Source of the DNA: a virus
Lineage: Duplodnaviria; Heunggongvirae; Uroviricota; Caudoviricetes
IMG/VR virus record: IMGVR_UViG_2778261461_000004
Direction: 5' to 3' (one strand)
Length of the DNA: 11,925 bases
The notes below the pieces were generated by a model that saw only the letters and a program-made list of their open reading frames with translations, made no database searches and was not told the origin of the DNA. How positions within the stretch are numbered: the first letter of the stretch is position 1; each line of letters begins with the position of its first letter. Positions 2,621-11,925 of this stretch are shown here, piece by piece. The position numbers and the translations under genes were made by a program.

Positions 2621-3211
2621 ATGTCTCGAATTTTTGCTTACTGTCGGATATCAACGCTGGATCAGACCACCGAAAATCAACGCCGGGAAATCGAAAGTGC
2701 AGGTTTTAAAATCAAACCTCAGCAAATAATCGAAGAACACATTAGCGGCTCAGCAGCAACCAGTGAGCGTCCTGGTTTTAACCGGTTGCTTGCTCGCCTG
2801 AAATGTGGTGATCAATTGATTGTGACAAAACTGGATCGCCTTGGTTGTAATGCAATGGATATCAGGAAAACAGTGGAACAACTGACCGAAACAGGTATCA
2901 GAGTGCATTGCTTAGCATTGGGTGGCATTGACCTGACCAGTCCAACAGGAAAAATGATGATGCAAGTAATTTCAGCAGTCGCTGAATTTGAACGAGACCT
3001 TTTACTTGAACGCACTCATTCCGGGATAGTAAGAGCCCGCGGCGCAGGGAAACGTTTTGGTCGACCACCTGTGTTAAATGAAGAACAGAAACAGGTGGTA
3101 TTCGAACGAATTAAGTCAGGTGTAAGTATAAGTGCCATTGCCCGGGAATTCAAAACCTCGCGGCAAACCATTTTAAGAGCCAAAGCAAAACTTCAGACAC
3201 CTGACATATAA
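2621..3211 (+). CDS. pinQ: Site-specific DNA invertase, serine recombinase (Pin/Gin/Hin/Cin family)
   Basis: 196-aa ORF with the resolvase N-terminal catalytic motif ([15 protein letters not shown], catalytic Ser in CRIST) and a C-terminal HTH ([22 protein letters not shown]). Size and position next to a tail-fibre assembly gene match Pin-type invertases. Confidence 0.9.
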
Positions 3212-3745: not shown

Positions 3746-5086
3746 GTGCAATACCCAGTCTGATTCTGTCGCCGCTCCACCACGAATCTGAATTTTCCAG
3801 GCCTCAGCCTCCTTAACAGGGTCAATCCACGGCATCACTGGTCCGGAATACACCGCGGTATACAGTGAAGAACGGTCAAGATCGCGGGGTAACCTGATAA
3901 CACCGGATGCCACAGCCTGTTTCAGCCATGCACGATACATCGGGCGGGTTACGGCACCAATAAACCAGTCCTGCAGGATCAGGTAGCCATCAGTAGACTC
4001 AACCAGTTCCTGACGCTGGGCGCTGTAAGTGCCGTTATAGTTTCGTGCCGTACTGGAAAAACTCAGACGACTGCCCGCCGCCACGGCACGCAACTGACCA
4101 TTACGAAAAGTTTCAAGGTTAGGATTGGGACGATCCGACTTCACCATTCCGATTTCTTCGCCGGGTTTCAGATCGTCGTAAATAATGCCTGGCTGAATGG
4201 TAAGCTCGCGTTCATTCTCCTTGCTGTCATTACCATCCGTTTCATAGCTCTGTCCGTCGCCTTTCCGGATGTACATCCCCAGAGCAGCGGCGATCCTTGC
4301 TGCAGTCAGCTCAGAATCTTCATACTCTTTCAGGGCGCTGAGGCGGATCAGCACACCGGACAATAAAGACGTCCCGCGCATCTGGTGCAGACGGCGAACA
4401 AATTTAAGATGCAGCATTCGCTCTGCATCCACTTCTTTGGTTTCCATCTGCCGTCCGGATACAGGACGACTTTTATACACCAGATATTTTTCGGGACGCC
4501 CCCAGTCATCAACAAACACGCCCTGATTCAGCCTGTTGCTCTCATCACTGGTCATGGGAATAAAGTCCGGCTCGAGCGCCTCCAGCCAGAAATGAACACC
4601 GGCAGAAGGCGTCAGGCTGTTTATGCGCCCGGAAACCATCTGGGCAAACACCTCACCATCGCGCAGCCAGGTACGCAGCATCAGACGTTCCAGCATCGGA
4701 CGGGTAAACTGCCCGGTGACTTCCGGACTGACAGACCATTCACTCCATCGGGTGCGTATCTCCGCTGCCAGGTCACGGGCAATGGCACCATTGCGTAATA
4801 CCGGATGTGGCTCGACAATAATCCCGTTTTTCCCCACCACCCGTTCTTCCAGCTTGTCAAATACACCAATGACCAGATCGTGGTTGTTATCAAGGTAACG
4901 GGCCTGCTCACGTAACGACACGGCCCCGTACTGGCTTAACTGGTCGGCAGTTCGGTTCTCCCGTCGGGCTTTGTGTGTCCGCGTCGTTTTTACGGCCTCA
5001 TAAGCCTGGATCACCGCTCGGGAACGCAGCCTTGCCGCTTTCCATCCTGGTGAAAAAACGCCAATCACATCATCAAGAATTGCCAT
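3746..5086 (-). pseudogene. Phage portal protein (lambda gpB-like family), 3'-truncated and read through into out-of-frame tfa sequence
   Basis: The track ORF 3539..5158 contains a portal-like sequence from MAILDDVIGVFSPGWKAARLRSRAVIQAYEAVK onward, with the ATG at 5084..5086 overlapping the gpW-like stop (TGATG). About 447 codons are portal-native, against roughly 500-540 for intact homologs. The last ~70 codons of the track ORF are tfa DNA read in another frame. Confidence 0.7.
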
Positions 5087-5298
5087 CAGAACCTCGCCAG
5101 CCGGTACCCGGGATGCCCCCGTCGTCGTGTAATCAGAGCCGCAAGGCGGCGCTCCCACTCCTGCCGCCCCTGCCGGATCTCAGATAAGTTTTCCATGGTC
5201 ATCTGCTGACCATTAAAAGTGACGGATTTTCCGTCCAGCACCGCCATTTCAGCTTCCGTATAACGCTGAATCATGGCTTCAATATCATTCTGATTCAT
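5086..5298 (-). CDS. Head-tail joining / head completion protein, gpW-like
   Basis: 70-aa protein (MNQNDIEAMIQRYTEAEMAVLDGKSVTFNGQQMTMENLSEIRQGRQEWERRLAALITRRRGHPGYRLARF) between terminase large subunit and portal, as in lambda A-W-B order. The C-terminal RRRG.PG motif resembles lambda gpW. The ATG at 5298 overlaps the TerL stop as ATGA, with GGAGG 6 nt upstream. Confidence 0.6.
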   Translation of the reverse strand: MNQNDIEAMIQRYTEAEMAVLDGKSVTFNGQQMTMENLSEIRQGRQEWERRLAALITRRRGHPGYRLARF

Positions 5299-7397
5299 AA
5301 CCATCCTCCGGAAGTCAGCCAGGGGTTAACATCGTCAGTTACTGTTTTCTTCCGTTTTTGTTTTTTAACAGGCGTGGATACCGGTTCCGGTGTGGGTGAC
5401 GGTTCGGTGCTGTCCGGGACACACTCCAGCCAGGTTTCCCGGCTCGCCCACTCCGGTGCATCCGGCCAGCGGATCTTTTCGTATCCATGCAGAATGACCA
5501 GAGCCTCGGCATACACCATCAGGTCAAAAGCTTCGTTGGCACCGCGACCCGGCTTACTCCATTTCCCGTCACTGCTCCGCTCTTCATACGTCAGTTCGTC
5601 GTAAAACCAGCTCCCCAGCCAGTCAGGGAAATGCACATAGCCGGGACCTGGCGAGTCACGCCATAACGCGTTATTCACCCGGTCTTTCAGGGCATCCGTC
5701 TGAAGAAGCCAGAGCGGTACATCACCTGCGGCCTGCGCCCGTCGGCCCGTTCGTCCGGTGTTATCAGGGAATGTACGGGTGATCAGTTTTGCGCGCCGGA
5801 TGCTGTCGCCCTTAAACAGGTAAATACGTTTACCAAGGCCATCACGACGGCAACGACGCCAGAATTTATAGGCATTATCAGTGACCCCGTCTTCACCGCC
5901 GGAGTCCACCGCCATTGCCATCAGTCGTATTTGTTGAGAAGGATCGGAGGCCAGCGGCCAGCTTTTATGAAAAACATCCGTCAGCAGGACATCCCAGTCT
6001 TCCGGATAGCTGGCCGGATCAATTCGCTGGCTCTCCCCGTCGCTGTCACCGCGCAATGACTGCGTGATGTTGTAACGATCAATAATCCAGCGTTCGCCAC
6101 GGCTGCCATAGCCCGTTACCTGAACCACAAAACGGCGATGACGTCCCGCCTGCACATCCACTGTCGCCACAAGGAAATTAACGCCATCCGGCACACTGCG
6201 GGAAGGAACTGGCTCTGCCCGCTGCTCAAGCAGTTCACTTTTTCGTTGCTCCATGCTGGCGCGGGGAAGATAAGGTAATCCCCAGTCGGTATTGATAACC
6301 GTCTTGAGTGTTTCTTCACTTCCGGTTGTCTCGTATTCCTGTTCTGCAGTAAGCAGTTTGTAAACGAGTTGCGAGAGTGTCTGGTAAGCAGCTGCCGGAC
6401 CCTCCATCCAGAATGACGCAATACGTGAACGCCTGGGATCACCATAACGACTGCCATCCGCATTGATGGATTCACCATCCCGCAACCAGACCCCACGTCC
6501 GTTCAGCTCACGTTTTTGTTCAGGCATAATCCGTCCTGAACAGAAAGGACACTGAATATAAGCCGCCTCACTTGCCAGCACGGGATCGGCAATATCACGG
6601 AAACCAGCAACCACATCGCCGCAGGGCTGAAAATACTCACCACAGTGTGGACATGGCCAGTACCAGCGACGGCGATCACCACGGTTATAGAGCGACAGGA
6701 TCCCCGTGGTTGGTGGAGCCTCATGCGGTGAAGTCCGTCGCCATTTCACATCCTTCACATCCCTGCCGGGGGAACTCTCCACCAGCGTCATACCGCTGGA
6801 CATAAATGTGGTGGTACGTTTTGAGGCAAGAGAGAAGGCATCCCCCTCGCCATCAATATCTTCCGGAAAACGGTCATAATCCGTCAGCGCGACGCATTTA
6901 TAATCTGATGAGGACATGATATTGACTGACGGCCAGCCGATTTTCAGGTAGTTGCCAGCAAGGAATGTTCTGTCATAAACGTTGTTGTCATTTTTGTTCG
7001 GACTCAGGCGACTGACCACTTCCGGGCTGACGCGAAACGTTCTGGCGAGTCGTTTTTTGGAGTGTTCGCGGGCTTTTTCCTCTGTCATCTGAATGATCAG
7101 CATATCCGCAGGATCGCAAATCACGTTGTAAATCACCCAGCCGTCAATCAGGCCGATAGTCTTGCCGGTTCGTGCCGGGCCAACAAATATCACTGCGTCG
7201 TATTCACGCGAGGCCAGGCAGTTCATAGGCTCAATAACATACGGTGCCACCAGCGGATCCCACGGGACTGAGTTCCCTGCCCCCATGGGCACCCGCATAT
7301 ACTGAGCAACGGCATCAGCAACCCGCATTCGTCTCGGTGCGCGAAGGATATAACCTGAATCGGTTCGTGCTGCCTTTGCGGTTTCCTGATTCAGCAT
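5295..7397 (-). CDS. Terminase large subunit (lambda gpA family)
   Basis: 700-aa ORF with a Walker A-like motif VGPARTGKT near the N-terminus, directly downstream of a Nu1-like small subunit. Strong RBS GGAGGAG upstream. The start overlaps the TerS stop (TAATG). Confidence 0.9.
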   Translation of the reverse strand: MLNQETAKAARTDSGYILRAPRRMRVADAVAQYMRVPMGAGNSVPWDPLVAPYVIEPMNCLASREYDAVIFVGPARTGKTIGLIDGWVIYNVICDPADMLIIQMTEEKAREHSKKRLARTFRVSPEVVSRLSPNKNDNNVYDRTFLAGNYLKIGWPSVNIMSSSDYKCVALTDYDRFPEDIDGEGDAFSLASKRTTTFMSSGMTLVESSPGRDVKDVKWRRTSPHEAPPTTGILSLYNRGDRRRWYWPCPHCGEYFQPCGDVVAGFRDIADPVLASEAAYIQCPFCSGRIMPEQKRELNGRGVWLRDGESINADGSRYGDPRRSRIASFWMEGPAAAYQTLSQLVYKLLTAEQEYETTGSEETLKTVINTDWGLPYLPRASMEQRKSELLEQRAEPVPSRSVPDGVNFLVATVDVQAGRHRRFVVQVTGYGSRGERWIIDRYNITQSLRGDSDGESQRIDPASYPEDWDVLLTDVFHKSWPLASDPSQQIRLMAMAVDSGGEDGVTDNAYKFWRRCRRDGLGKRIYLFKGDSIRRAKLITRTFPDNTGRTGRRAQAAGDVPLWLLQTDALKDRVNNALWRDSPGPGYVHFPDWLGSWFYDELTYEERSSDGKWSKPGRGANEAFDLMVYAEALVILHGYEKIRWPDAPEWASRETWLECVPDSTEPSPTPEPVSTPVKKQKRKKTVTDDVNPWLTSGGWL

Positions 7398-7891
7398 TAC
7401 TCCTCCTGCTGTAATTCCTCCTCATCATCCGCACCTGCTTCAGTCACCCGCAGGGCTATCTGATCGCGCAGATCATCAATAATGGACTGAACACGGCTCA
7501 CAGCGGCAGGCTGCAGACCGCAGTCACGTTCAAGAATATCCGGTAATGTCTCCAGCACCTGCACGACCGCTTTTGCCCAGATGGCAAACTCCCGTCTGAC
7601 ATCACTGGCCGGAATGAGTTGTGCCGTTTCCTGTTCGAACTTAAGACGCTCACGTTCAGACTGATACCAGGCTTTGCGCTCATGCGCGTCCATTTCGCCT
7701 TCTGCAACCGGCGGTGGTAATGCCAGAAATGCCGACACAATATCAACCACCCGATAAAGCTTGAGGTTGCTTTCATGCCCCCCTGCAACGGGTAGATTTT
7801 GCAGCCTTGCCGCAGCAGTCTGGCGATGTACACCTGACAATGCCGCCAGTTGACTGATATTCAGCGTCAGATTTTTTAACTCTCGATCCAT
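7397..7891 (-). CDS. nohA: Terminase small subunit, Nu1-like (NohA/NohD family)
   Basis: 164-aa ORF. The N-terminus NLTLNISQLAALSGVHRQTAAARL is HTH-like, as in Nu1-type DNA-binding small subunits. The C-terminus is acidic (EAGADDEEELQQEE). It sits about 180 bp downstream of the cos-like sequence, with GGAG upstream of the ATG. Confidence 0.8.
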   Translation of the reverse strand: MDRELKNLTLNISQLAALSGVHRQTAAARLQNLPVAGGHESNLKLYRVVDIVSAFLALPPPVAEGEMDAHERKAWYQSERERLKFEQETAQLIPASDVRREFAIWAKAVVQVLETLPDILERDCGLQPAAVSRVQSIIDDLRDQIALRVTEAGADDEEELQQEE

Positions 7892-8039
7892 ACCCGCTCC
7901 AGAATGTTTTAAACATGCATCTTGCGAACAACTTTAGGCAAACGGTGTTAGCGATGAACAAAAAACAATCAGAATCGACACCATAAAAATAAAACCACTG
8001 TAATACCAATCAATTACAGTAGTGGTGATGACGAATAAA

Positions 8040-8112
8040 ATTTCAAAAACTAGCCTTTTTCCGCGACGCTCCCGCCCCGTGGCAGGGACCCCCACTGGGA
8101 GGACCCGACAGC
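8040..8112 (-). other. Candidate cos site (cosN-like core about 8061..8082, with adjacent cosB-like sequence toward terS)
   Basis: Read on the minus strand the sequence is CCACGGGGCGGGAGCGTCGCGGAAAAAGGC...GAAATTTTATTCGTCAT. This resembles, from memory, lambda cosN (GGGCGGCGACCTCGCGGG) and the downstream GAAAATTTT and TTCGTCAT elements. Position relative to the terS start is about the same as cosN to Nu1 in lambda (~190 bp). Confidence 0.5.
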
Positions 8113-8443
8113 CTGACAACCGTGACGAGCATCTGAAACAGAGCTTTACATAATGGCATGGGGATAATTCAGAAGGACATCACAGCATGCCCACACAAAT
8201 TAGTGTGAGTGTCCTGTTTCTTACTACGCGCAGGACTGACGAGCATGAGGGGAAAATACGCGAACCGAAATGCCTTATCTTCAGAAATGCAGCCGGCATC
8301 CGAACTGGACGATATTGTAAATTCACCTAAATACGAGGCATTGCTGTAGTTGAATTGCAGTACTGTATTAGCCTTACAGTGACAGAATACGATATTGACT
8401 CTGTCACTTGTGAAATGGTCAGAATGGTTAGCAGTTATGGTGA

Positions 8444-8650
8444 TCAGTCAACCACCAGGGAATAATCCTTCGTATTCTTATCGTGCTTTACTAACGCGGC
8501 CTCAATTGCCCTGAATGCTTCCAGAGATACTTGATGTTCTATACATGCAATTACAACATCCGGGTAACCCATCGAAATGGTGCTATTAAGCATAGTTTTT
8601 ACACGAACCTGCTCCTGGGAGGGGGCATCAGTGTATTGATCTTTATGCAT
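8444..8650 (-). CDS. Hypothetical 68-aa prophage protein, possibly DUF3950 (YlcI/YnfO-like) family
   Basis: [71 protein letters not shown] with GGAG 7 nt upstream of the ATG. Family assignment is from recollection only and is uncertain. Confidence 0.55.
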
Positions 8651-8857
8651 TTTGTCGCTCCATTCGTTTGCTCTTCACTTGCGGCCAAAAATATAACGTC
8701 AAATCACTCAGCATGAAAGAGTGAAAGTTTCAGCGCGTTTCCCTTACATAATCTGTCGTTTGTATTCTCTTCAGGCATACCGGAAAGACTAGGTATTGTC
8801 ACATAACCAATACCATCGACAATCGAGATTTATATCTATTCGGTAATGTTTAAATAT

Positions 8858-8880
8858 AAAAAAACCCCGTAAAAACGAGG
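8858..8880 (-). terminator. Rho-independent terminator downstream of gnsB
   Basis: On the minus strand: stem CCUCGU / ACGGGG (with one G-U pair), a short U-rich loop, then a run of 7 U. Located 65-90 nt downstream of the gnsB stop. Confidence 0.55.
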
Positions 8881-8945
8881 TTTATGGGTAATTTGTATTG
8901 TTGAATAGCATCTGATGAGAAATTGATGCTAATACTATAAACATG

Positions 8946-9119
8946 CTAGATTAAATCAATCTTGATATCATAGCTTTCAAGACCAGTCATTTTTTCCCGT
9001 GCAGTAAACTGGATACTGGTAACTTCTTTCCCGGTCTTTTTCTTAAGCTCAATGATTTTTTTTGTTATATATTCAGAAATATCTGCTTCTGTTTTTGTTT
9101 TTAACTCTTCAATGTTCAT
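8946..9119 (-). CDS. gnsB: Gns family protein (GnsA/GnsB)
   Basis: 57-aa translation MNIEELKTKTEADISEYITKKIIELKKKTGKEVTSIQFTAREKMTGLESYDIKIDLI matches the Gns family. AAGAGGAA lies upstream of the ATG at 9119 (alternative ATG at 9122). The track's longer 88-aa start at 9212 is not supported by an RBS. Confidence 0.8.
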   Translation of the reverse strand: MNIEELKTKTEADISEYITKKIIELKKKTGKEVTSIQFTAREKMTGLESYDIKIDLI

Positions 9120-9291
9120 CATTTCCTCTTTTAGTCTGTTATGACTGTCCTGGTACACAGTAGTGTCAATTATATGGAGCAAACGTATAAAAGATAAGAT
9201 GAAACATCGCAATAATCAACATACGACGGTCTAAATTTCACACAAACAGATAAAGATGATTATCATTTATTATCAATGCATTAGAATCAAA

Positions 9292-9522
9292 TCAATTCAA
9301 GAGTCTCATTGCTGCTTCCAGAATTTCTTCTGAAGTTACATGTCGATCCGCTGCTACATAAATGACTTTATGATCTCCGGTCAGAGATGGAAACCCTGCG
9401 GCCATTACAGTAAGGTGTGTTTTTTCGCCATTTGGATATTCACGCATGATGGTGTTAACTCCAGTCATCGCTGGCACTACCACTGCTGGTTCAGAGTTAA
9501 AAAAAACTATGATTTTTTTCAT
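9292..9522 (-). CDS. Hypothetical 76-aa protein (possibly YnfN-like, by position)
   Basis: ORF MKKIIVFFNSEPAVVVPAMTGVNTIMREYPNGEKTHLTVMAAGFPSLTGDHKVIYVAADRHVTSEEILEAAMRLLN from the ATG at 9522. The track's extension to 9564 starts at a TTG inside a terminator. Weak RBS. Lies between gnsB and cspI, as ynfN does in K-12 Qin by my recollection. Confidence 0.5.
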   Translation of the reverse strand: MKKIIVFFNSEPAVVVPAMTGVNTIMREYPNGEKTHLTVMAAGFPSLTGDHKVIYVAADRHVTSEEILEAAMRLLN

Positions 9523-9565
9523 GATGTTACCGTAGTATGTGAGTATCCATCGAATAGATACCAAG

Positions 9566-9587
9566 CAAAAAAGCTCCCGAAGGAGCC
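9566..9587 (-). terminator. Rho-independent terminator with UUCG tetraloop
   Basis: On the minus strand: GGCUCC-UUCG-GGAGCU followed by UUUUUU. The plus-strand A-run makes it potentially bidirectional. About 200 nt downstream of the cspI stop. Confidence 0.6.
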
Positions 9588-9793
9588 TTCATTTTCACTT
9601 TTTTAAATCCAACGACAGACGGCTGGCATTTAAGTATTGTGAAATATTATCAAATGTAATCATCATTGATTTACAAAAGATACATTTTGCCCCGAAAGGA
9701 TTCATGTCAGAAACATCAAAAGATGATGTTCTATACTGGGAACCATGACAACACGGGCATCTAAAGTGAATATGGTTTGTAATATTGTCTACC

Positions 9794-10006
9794 TCAAAGC
9801 GCCACTACATGAACAGCGGCAGGACCTTTAGGTCCGTTCTCAATACCAAATTCAACTTCCTGATTCTCAGTTAATGTTTTGAAATCGTTGCTCTGAATTG
9901 CTGAGAAATGGACAAACACATCTTTGCTGCCATCTTTCGGCGTGATGAAACCAAAACCTTTTTCAGGGTTAAACCATTTCACTAAACCAGTCATTTTGTT
10001 AGACAT
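9794..10006 (-). CDS. cspI: Cold shock protein, CspA family
   Basis: 70-aa [73 protein letters not shown] with RNP1-like KGFGFI and RNP2-like VFVHF motifs. AAGG RBS upstream. Followed upstream by a long untranslated region, as is typical of csp genes. Confidence 0.9.
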
Positions 10007-10369: not shown

Positions 10370-11393
<1,024 letters not shown>

Positions 11394-11397
<4 letters not shown>

Positions 11398-11705
11398 AGA
11401 TATTTATGATGAGGACGCTCGTGCTTATTGGCAGGATTTTCAATCTTAAAGGAGTACTGATGCTGCAGATAAGACTCAACTTTTTCTGACAATTTTTCTG
11501 CTACTTCCAGGAAGACTTGCCGGACGCTCATTCTGGCTGCTGCCTCATAAAACTCCAGCGCAGCTCCTTCAACACGGTCCATGGCGACATCCAGGCCAAA
11601 AATTTCACCGTCAAAGCGTTCTTTGTCCTGTAAGGCTACAGTTACCGTAACTTTATTCTCAAAATTACGGACTCCTTTCACAACCAGTTCATAGTCTTGA
11701 GTCAT
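11394..11705 (-). CDS. ydfR: Uncharacterised prophage protein between holin and endolysin (YdfR-like, DUF1327 by recollection)
   Basis: 103-aa ORF with strong RBS GAGGAGAG 7 nt upstream of the ATG. Sits between holin and endolysin genes, as ydfR does in K-12 Qin. Confidence 0.65.
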
Positions 11706-11709
11706 TGGA

Positions 11710-11925
11710 TTACTCTCCTCTCGCAGCCTTACGCCTGTCTTCTTTAATCTTGAAATAAAGATTTGTCAGATACGTCAGCATGCCAAATACCAGACTACCC
11801 AATACACCTATTGCCGCCCACTGTGAGGGCGTGACTTTATCGAGCAACTGTAAAAACCAGTAGCCAGCACTGCCTGCAGAGGTGCTGTAGGCGATGCCCG
11901 TTGTTAACTTATCCATGGATTTCAT
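11710..11925 (-). CDS. essQ: Class II holin, S21-type pinholin, with dual-start motif
   Basis: 71-aa [74 protein letters not shown] with two TM segments and a charged C-terminus. The Met1-Lys-Ser-Met4 start resembles the antiholin/holin dual start of phage 21 S. The ATG is the last three bases of the window, so upstream signals are not visible. Confidence 0.85.

Follow-up and report, generated by a model that had tools for sequence, protein, structure and literature searches.

A small gene preceding cos in a defective Qin-site prophage, assignable to the YbcW/lambdap79 family of lambdoid elements

The 68-codon open reading frame (ORF) at positions 8444-8650 of the 11,925-nucleotide stretch of DNA analysed here (the window) is, to judge from sequence comparison, almost certainly a member of the YbcW/lambdap79 family (PHROG 657), a family that is already known and of which copies identical to the window allele are already present in phage and genome databases. 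The whole account that we favour, in which this family identity is combined with late expression and a host-directed accessory role, seems to us to stand a little better than even. Its functional core (that the product is a non-essential, soluble accessory protein, encoded at the end of the late operon, directed towards the host and binding some host or defence component through its conserved part) is more tentative, and taken by itself we would place it appreciably below even.

A conserved small gene of a known family

The window contains 80 ORFs of at least 40 amino acids, so that the mere existence of an ORF at 8444-8650 proves nothing, and it is conservation that must carry the case. The initial annotation had proposed a small 68-aa gene here, and an ORF beginning with ATG does occupy exactly these coordinates, on the minus strand (the phage late-gene strand), co-oriented with the lysis genes and with terS and terL. 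The phrog_657 profile matches it at E 4.6e-48, with residues 1-68 lying on positions 1-68 of the 68 in the profile, and comparisons of residues 16-68 with the alleles of lambda, PhiR63_1, PhiR30_1 and Tritos give dN/dS values of 0.08-0.15 (0.15 against lambda, from eight synonymous and five non-synonymous changes). It is because of this full-length match, together with the low dN/dS over residues 16-68, that we take the ORF to be real and, as far as sequence can tell, a genuine conserved small gene. The good ribosome-binding site that had been attributed to it is likewise borne out (Table 1), the surrounding sequence ATGGAGCGACAAAATG being the same in lambda, PhiR30_1, PhiR63_1, Tritos and the window, and all of the natural alleles aligned have kept an unbroken frame together with the start codon and the Shine-Dalgarno sequence.

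The protein is identical to those of phages HannyBb and mEp460_ev081, and is 79% identical, without gaps and over 68 of 68 residues, to lambda lambdap79 and Escherichia coli K-12 YbcW. An E. coli genome with RefSeq annotation, used here for reference, is 100% identical in DNA across window positions 7300-9300. The RefSeq entry found at the same locus in other genomes is WP_000548593.1; alleles of the window type are named 'hypothetical protein' in RefSeq, and those of the lambda type 'protein YbcW'. Scans of the ORF against Pfam, NCBIfam and PADLOC assigned it to no family, and the sole Pfam line, for XFP_C (E 0.043), was below threshold and was set aside as noise.

A DUF3950-like affiliation, offered tentatively in the initial annotation, would instead have made the protein a relative of YlcI and YnfO. 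What speaks for it is gene position, for ylcI sits between ybcW and the Nu1 homologue in both DLP12 and lambda. The assignment is nevertheless refuted: no Pfam match to DUF3950 (PF13132) was obtained, even at E ≤ 1, for either the window ORF or K-12 YbcW, when the positive control in the same run, K-12 YlcI, scored 72.8 bits (E 1.9e-20) against a gathering score of 25 bits; an hhalign comparison of the YbcW-family alignment with YlcI gave a probability of 0.2% over 13 columns; and ylcI is on the opposite strand from ybcW, with its DNA absent from the window. We regard the chance of DUF3950 being correct as negligible, and it seems that the neighbouring gene ylcI had been taken for ybcW. The gene order in the K-12 prophage DLP12 is borD, ybcV, ybcW (+), ylcI (-, DUF3950), nohD, and the whole borD-nohD stretch is 98% identical to lambda from 45967 through cos to 857. 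Window positions 8766-8299 are homologous to lambda 47629-48090 and to K-12 (about 83% identical), and the homology to K-12 breaks off some 19 bp before ylcI (at position 4733 of L042, against 4752-4946 for ylcI). Nor did any of five further small ORFs, tested from the interval 7934-8349, match DUF3950.

The protein (7.7 kDa, pI 5.45, GRAVY -0.29) is mildly acidic and not hydrophobic, no transmembrane segment or signal peptide is evident in its sequence, and it is predicted to be mostly helical and soluble. Two AlphaFold2 runs, the second with a divergent homologue added, both gave a pLDDT of 65 and the same three-helix model, a low-confidence one in which helices are predicted at about residues 12-25, 30-38 and 43-61 and the ends are disordered. 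Foldseek searches of the PDB (twice) and of BFVD returned nothing significant, the best hit being a homeodomain at E 4.3, and a sequence-profile search of the PDB (best E 1.4) gave no relative. With a weak model and no structural match, the fold offers no functional clue.

Published work on the lambda protein

The protein had been described as uncharacterised. This is apt in so far as no native function is reported for YbcW or lambdap79 in the literature that we found, but it overlooks a published account of the lambda orthologue, in which it is both dispensable and the activator of a defence system, as well as the expression data for K-12 considered below. Vulcan is an anti-phage defence system of the NIR-domain NADase kind, which depletes NAD+; cells expressing it together with lambdap79 suffer toxicity, and lambdap79 has been named as its activator; and all seven of the lambda-vir escapers of Vulcan that were sequenced had deleted lambdap79, probably via recombination with Qin, yet were viable (2026 preprint, bioRxiv 10.64898/2026.09.04.749371). 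In a CRISPRi map, knock-down of lambdap79 was scored 'essential', the gene being listed as non-essential on the basis of earlier literature; the score may reflect a polar effect on the late transcript as it runs on through cos. K-12 ybcW has served as a neutral insertion site.

Selection, distant relatives and the breadth of the family

Selection on the protein is uneven. As against the constrained core (residues 16-68), residues 1-15 show a dN/dS of about 1.2 in comparison with lambda, in other words change at about the rate of silent sites, and tail and core differ significantly in how much their amino acids have changed (Fisher p 1.3e-4). The N-terminal tail exists as two main alleles and has been replaced outright in some variants. 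In one of these (P0123), 18 unrelated N-terminal residues precede the YbcW core. Another (P0216) is a natural fusion of the N-terminus of YnfN to the C-terminus of YbcW, joined at an 'LEA' common to both, which implies a deletion that took out gnsB. A kinship between YnfN and YbcW, which this fusion might suggest, was looked for by BLASTP, which gave no alignment.

The only true distant homologue found (P0161, 63 aa, 56% identical) retains the core, in the form YPDVV.ACI...YSL.VD. Its gene lies at 273-464 of two Logan contigs (L004 and L005), in a CP4-like island that also carries AlpA, YagK/YfjJ-type, zinc-ribbon and Rep-like genes, there being no terminase among the called genes. The two contigs come from different samples and have an identical end point, 272 bp ahead of the gene. 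A further search with P0161 as the query recovered only P0161 itself.

The family is otherwise extremely narrow, being confined to lambdoid elements of Escherichia and Shigella, and identity among its close members nowhere falls below 74%. When 1.84 billion representatives were searched exhaustively, 218 matches came to light, and most of the 32 that were inspected look like frameshifted or error-ridden reads of lambda control DNA. Many close matches are borne on contigs of about 3.5 kb, which we take to be the nanopore control amplicon. A scan of genome collections did yield matches outside Escherichia, all to the lambda-type allele and mostly on contigs that are short, of low coverage or of the size of lambda (about 48.5 kb); these look like lambda contamination. 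Lambda-derived contigs have been deposited inside the genomes of quite unrelated bacteria, for example Streptomyces, Pseudomonas and Flavobacterium. Because of control DNA and contamination in the databases, the apparent diversity and host range of the family are inflated.

Such narrowness, and the fact that the flanking DNA is conserved about as well as the ORF, would be in keeping with an ORF that has no function of its own, and whose conservation stems from the recent horizontal spread of a DNA module or from overlapping DNA or RNA signals. We think this very improbable: the changes in residues 16-68 are mostly synonymous, no natural allele aligned has lost its frame, start codon or Shine-Dalgarno sequence, the core motif survives in a homologue only 56% identical, and expression of the lambda protein together with Vulcan has a biological effect.

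The window as a prophage remnant

The window is a Qin-site cryptic (defective) prophage from which the head and tail genes have been lost; hence this copy of the gene cannot serve particle assembly. Its recognizable features are collected in Table 1. In the genome annotated by RefSeq at the same locus, the 'portal' ORF is a C-terminally truncated portal gene joined to a tail-fibre-assembly remnant.

The stretch 8946-10006 is a Qin-type accessory cluster (Csp, YnfN, GnsB) on the late strand, closed by the terminator-like element at 8883-8862; two tiny genes, ynfR and ymcF, are also annotated by RefSeq within it. On the lysis side, an ORF at 10420-10716 (-), lying out of frame inside the Rz-like gene and containing a lipobox-like LTSC motif, probably encodes an Rz1-type outer-membrane spanin.

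Table 1. Positions of the features discussed, in window coordinates
Feature	Coordinates	Strand	Basis
ydfJ, MFS transporter	1-1284
PinQ-type serine recombinase	2621-3211	+
Lambda-family portal protein (539-aa 'portal' ORF)	after large terminase on late strand	-
GpA-type large terminase (TerL)	5295-7397	-
Terminase small subunit (terS), DUF1441 type	7397-7891	-	PF07278 E 2.7e-41; phrog_141 E 7e-74
cosN GGGCGGGAGCGT, lambda-like	8077-8066	-	Phage record ends; lambda cos comparison
3' flank common to lambda and DLP12, unannotated	8299-8443	-	Alignments; lambda 47945-48090
68-aa ORF, YbcW/lambdap79 family (PHROG 657)	8444-8650	-	ORF calls; phrog_657; dN/dS
Shine-Dalgarno GGAG	8661-8658	-	Sequence; 7 nt before ATG; invariant in five phages
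5' flank common to lambda and DLP12	8651-8766	-	BLAST and alignments; about 83% identical
Intrinsic-terminator-like hairpin and T-run, after gnsB	8883-8862	-	Scan
gnsB (GnsA/GnsB family), upstream neighbour	8946-9122	-	PF08178 E 2.2e-33; annotation
YnfN	9292-9522	-
CspI/CspG-like cold-shock protein	9794-10006	-
DUF2514 Rz-like protein	10370-10867	-
Lysozyme	10864-11397	-
DUF1327/YdfR protein	11394-11705	-
Holin	11710-11925	-

Position relative to cos and the terminase genes

The ends of phage records, taken with the match to lambda, place cosN at 8077-8066. The Tritos record ends at the equivalent of window position 8078, the cdtI record starts at 8077 and that of mEp460_4F5 at 8082; GGGCGGGAGCGT is identical to lambda cosN at 9 of 12 positions, and the flanking ACG and CGCGG are the same as in lambda, the minus strand at cos reading ...CCACG/GGGCGGGAGCGTCGCGG in the window and ...TTACG/GGGCGGCGACCTCGCGG in lambda. 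The record of mEp460_ev081 (L002) could not be used for locating cos, as it ends within terS and has a terminal duplication of about 98 bp. This duplication, in the stretch L002 45727-45865, is a direct repeat of the cos-proximal region corresponding to window 8055-7958, and has the appearance of an artefact of assembly at the ends of the genome.

Gene order and the position of cosN confirm the location, given in the initial annotation, between accessory (lysis-side) genes and cos. The accompanying phrase 'immediately upstream of cos' is right in that the gene is the last late-strand ORF before cos, but is loosely worded, given that cosN lies 366 bp past the stop codon. A further 174 bp separate cosN from terS, and the gap from the ORF to terS is 552 bp in all. 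The terS gene itself is not of the Nu1 type but is a DUF1441 gene (Table 1) in which Pfam finds no match to Nu1; the arrangement in the window fits the combination of a lambda-like cosN with a different cosB and terS.

The neighbours of the gene vary while its position, at the far end of the right arm of lambdoid prophages, is fixed: no other late-strand ORF comes between it and cos in lambda, PhiR63_1, PhiR30_1, Tritos, HannyBb and mEp460_ev081. The order in lambda and PhiR30_1 is bor, ybcV, YbcW, ylcI, Nu1; in PhiR63_1 it is csp, ynfN, gnsB, YbcW, Nu1; in Tritos, gnsB, ybcV and YbcW are followed by a cos of the window type; and in the window the order is gnsB, YbcW, cos, DUF1441 terS, with HannyBb and mEp460_ev081 alike as far as their records run. 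Of 5426 complete E. coli genomes, 2010 (37%) contain DNA of the ORF; 1000 have a contiguous ybcW-ylcI-nohD (Nu1) arrangement and 369 a contiguous arrangement of the ORF, cos and DUF1441 terS. The check on co-occurrence with Nu1-type terminases that had been suggested is thereby answered: the gene precedes Nu1/A as well as DUF1441/GpA terminases, and is therefore not tied to one terminase family or packaging system.

These observations bear directly on the idea that the protein might be a packaging accessory factor working at or near cos, in terminase assembly, cos cleavage or the termination of packaging. In its favour one may cite the constancy of the pre-cos position in every phage context examined; the co-travelling of the gene with about 150-230 bp of 3' flank containing a conserved hairpin; and a study of lambda coevolution, in which two intergenic mutations downstream of lambdap79 were reported to reduce infection efficiency. 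The hairpin (GTGACAGA...TCTGTCAC, 8407-8379) has invariant 8-bp stems, a variable loop and no U-tract, and the 3' flank also includes an invariant 20-nt block (GTGAATTTACAATATCGTCC, 8326-8307); the predicted fold of the flank is not better than that of shuffled sequences (z -0.8), and an Rfam scan of 7800-9300 gave no family. A pre-cos position that is kept across two cos types is, moreover, compatible either with a packaging role or with simple linkage. Against such a role stand the viable lambda escapers that delete the gene and its listing as non-essential; its pairing with terS genes from two families unrelated to each other and with two distinct cosB regions; the occurrence of its divergent homologue in an island with no terminase among the called genes; the lack of any detectable DNA-binding or terminase-related fold; and the many lambdoid phages that have the same terminases without the gene, which is found in just 40 of 50,697 phage records (the original mEp460 record not being one of the 40). 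The intact copy in the window, in a prophage without head and tail genes, also counts towards a non-packaging role. On balance, we consider a packaging function improbable.

Routes to expression

The initial annotation credited the gene with its own promoter region, a claim for which we found no clear support. A consensus scan detected no sigma-70 promoter on the coding strand in 7800-9300, although there is a weak candidate -10 sequence, TATATT, at 8695-8690 (TAATAT in lambda). The 5' flank common to lambda and DLP12 (Table 1) is extended by weaker homology to about 8815. Further upstream, a PdhR box and an FNR site (TGTTGATGATTTATGTCAAATATT) are present in lambda, PhiR30_1 and Tritos; both the window and PhiR63_1 have gnsB and its terminator in place of this region, and pattern searches for FNR and PdhR found neither site upstream of the ORF. 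The terminator at 8883-8862 separates gnsB from the ORF, the spacer upstream of which is 295 bp long (36% GC), and a scan of the minus strand from 8444 to 8024 revealed no terminator downstream. The most economical route to expression would be read-through of the Q-dependent late transcript, which we propose because of the established biology of lambda.

The published data on K-12 have a different flavour. There, FNR is bound upstream of ybcW, at the site TGTTGATGATTTATGTCAAATATT, in ChIP experiments, and ybcW has been listed among genes activated by FNR and dependent on HU; the spacer between ybcV and ybcW is bound by PdhR, and a pdhR mutant has 8.9-fold less ybcW mRNA; Hha induces ybcW 17-fold; and convergent, overlapping ybcW-ylcI transcripts occur in at least half of RNA-seq samples. 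Taken together, the FNR, PdhR, Hha and overlap data point to expression in the silent prophage, and fit a gene of benefit to the lysogen at least as well as they fit the late-expression account. The gene may thus be one for lysogenic conversion (a 'moron'), akin to bor and csp/gnsB, transcribed from its own promoter in the silent prophage under the influence of host regulators and advantageous to the host cell. Besides the K-12 regulation and transcripts, this reading draws on the intactness of the gene in two defective prophages (DLP12 and the Qin-site remnant of the window), and on the terminator directly upstream and the AT-rich spacer just described, which would suit a separate transcription unit. 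It has to contend, however, with the lack in the window of FNR and PdhR sites and of a sigma-70 consensus on the coding strand; with the lack of a terminator after the gene, the hairpin at 8407-8379 having no U-tract; with the sensing of the lambda protein by Vulcan, from which it is evident that this protein is made in lytic lambda-vir infection; and with the absence of any lysogen phenotype from the literature that we found. We judge it rather unlikely.

A possible host-directed function

Our preferred account, of a late-expressed, host-directed accessory protein, can be put in more concrete terms. The protein would be made in lytic growth from the Q-antiterminated late transcript, reading through the gnsB terminator, with perhaps some additional, low-level independent expression. 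It would act by binding a host protein or a host-defence protein, and not by way of DNA packaging. The constrained core, residues 16-68 (ending in YSLVVD), would be its working surface, and the core of the lambda orthologue is presumably what Vulcan senses, while the 15 N-terminal residues would form a fast-evolving and probably disordered tail. A caveat attaches to the host-directed reading, in that defence systems sense structural proteins too, and being sensed is not equivalent to manipulating the host.

A bolder version, in which the YbcW/p79 core is a late-expressed counter-defence or host-takeover factor that is guarded by Vulcan-type NADases, is a speculation that we think has only a small chance of being true. 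If it were, the variable N-terminal tail might reflect an arms race with sensors, and the family, given its prevalence of 37%, would be a common determinant of which lambdoid phages defence systems see.

Very common among the prophages of E. coli, the family is now a defined trigger of an anti-phage system, and the window copy adds little to this in itself. Alleles like that of the window may nonetheless be useful in finding out what it is that Vulcan recognises, and whether prophage-borne copies alter the activation of defence. The annotation is also corrected, the gene being YbcW/lambdap79 and not DUF3950, and its terS neighbour DUF1441 and not Nu1.

Comparison with known systems

YlcI and YnfO (DUF3950, PF13132) resemble the window protein in being small prophage proteins whose genes, in DLP12, lambda and Qin, fall between cos and the lysis genes, but they are unrelated to it in sequence, are encoded on the opposite strand, and are missing from the window. 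The likeness to the morons of lambdoid late regions (bor, lom and the gnsB/cspI/ynfN cluster) is closer: here too is a non-essential small gene between essential late modules, with changing neighbours, and retained in defective prophages. It differs from them in being on the late strand, in that neither a promoter nor a terminator of its own could be demonstrated in the window, and in having no known host phenotype.

With the phage triggers of abortive-infection systems such as Vulcan, the parallel is that the lambda orthologue suffices for Vulcan toxicity and is deleted in escapers. Triggering, though, is a property reported for the lambda allele, and the status of trigger describes the protein as the defence system sees it and not its role for the phage.

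The closest counterpart is lambdap79 itself (NP_597782.1, lambda 47738-47944), the protein sequence of which is the same as that of YbcW (b0559, NP_415091.1) in the DLP12 prophage of K-12. The two settings differ upstream (a divergent ybcV with FNR and PdhR sites for lambdap79 and YbcW, gnsB with a terminator in the window), downstream (ylcI follows lambdap79 and YbcW, and is lacking in the window), and in the types of cosB and terS (Nu1 in lambda, DUF1441 in the window), and the 15 N-terminal residues, MNKEQSADDPSVDLI in lambdap79 and YbcW, are of another allele in the window protein. In all else the correspondence is close: both proteins are of 68 aa, with 79% identity overall rising to 91% over residues 16-68; both belong to PHROG 657; their genes have the same Shine-Dalgarno and start context and share 116 bp of 5' and 145 bp of 3' flanking DNA; and each gene is the last late-strand ORF before cos.
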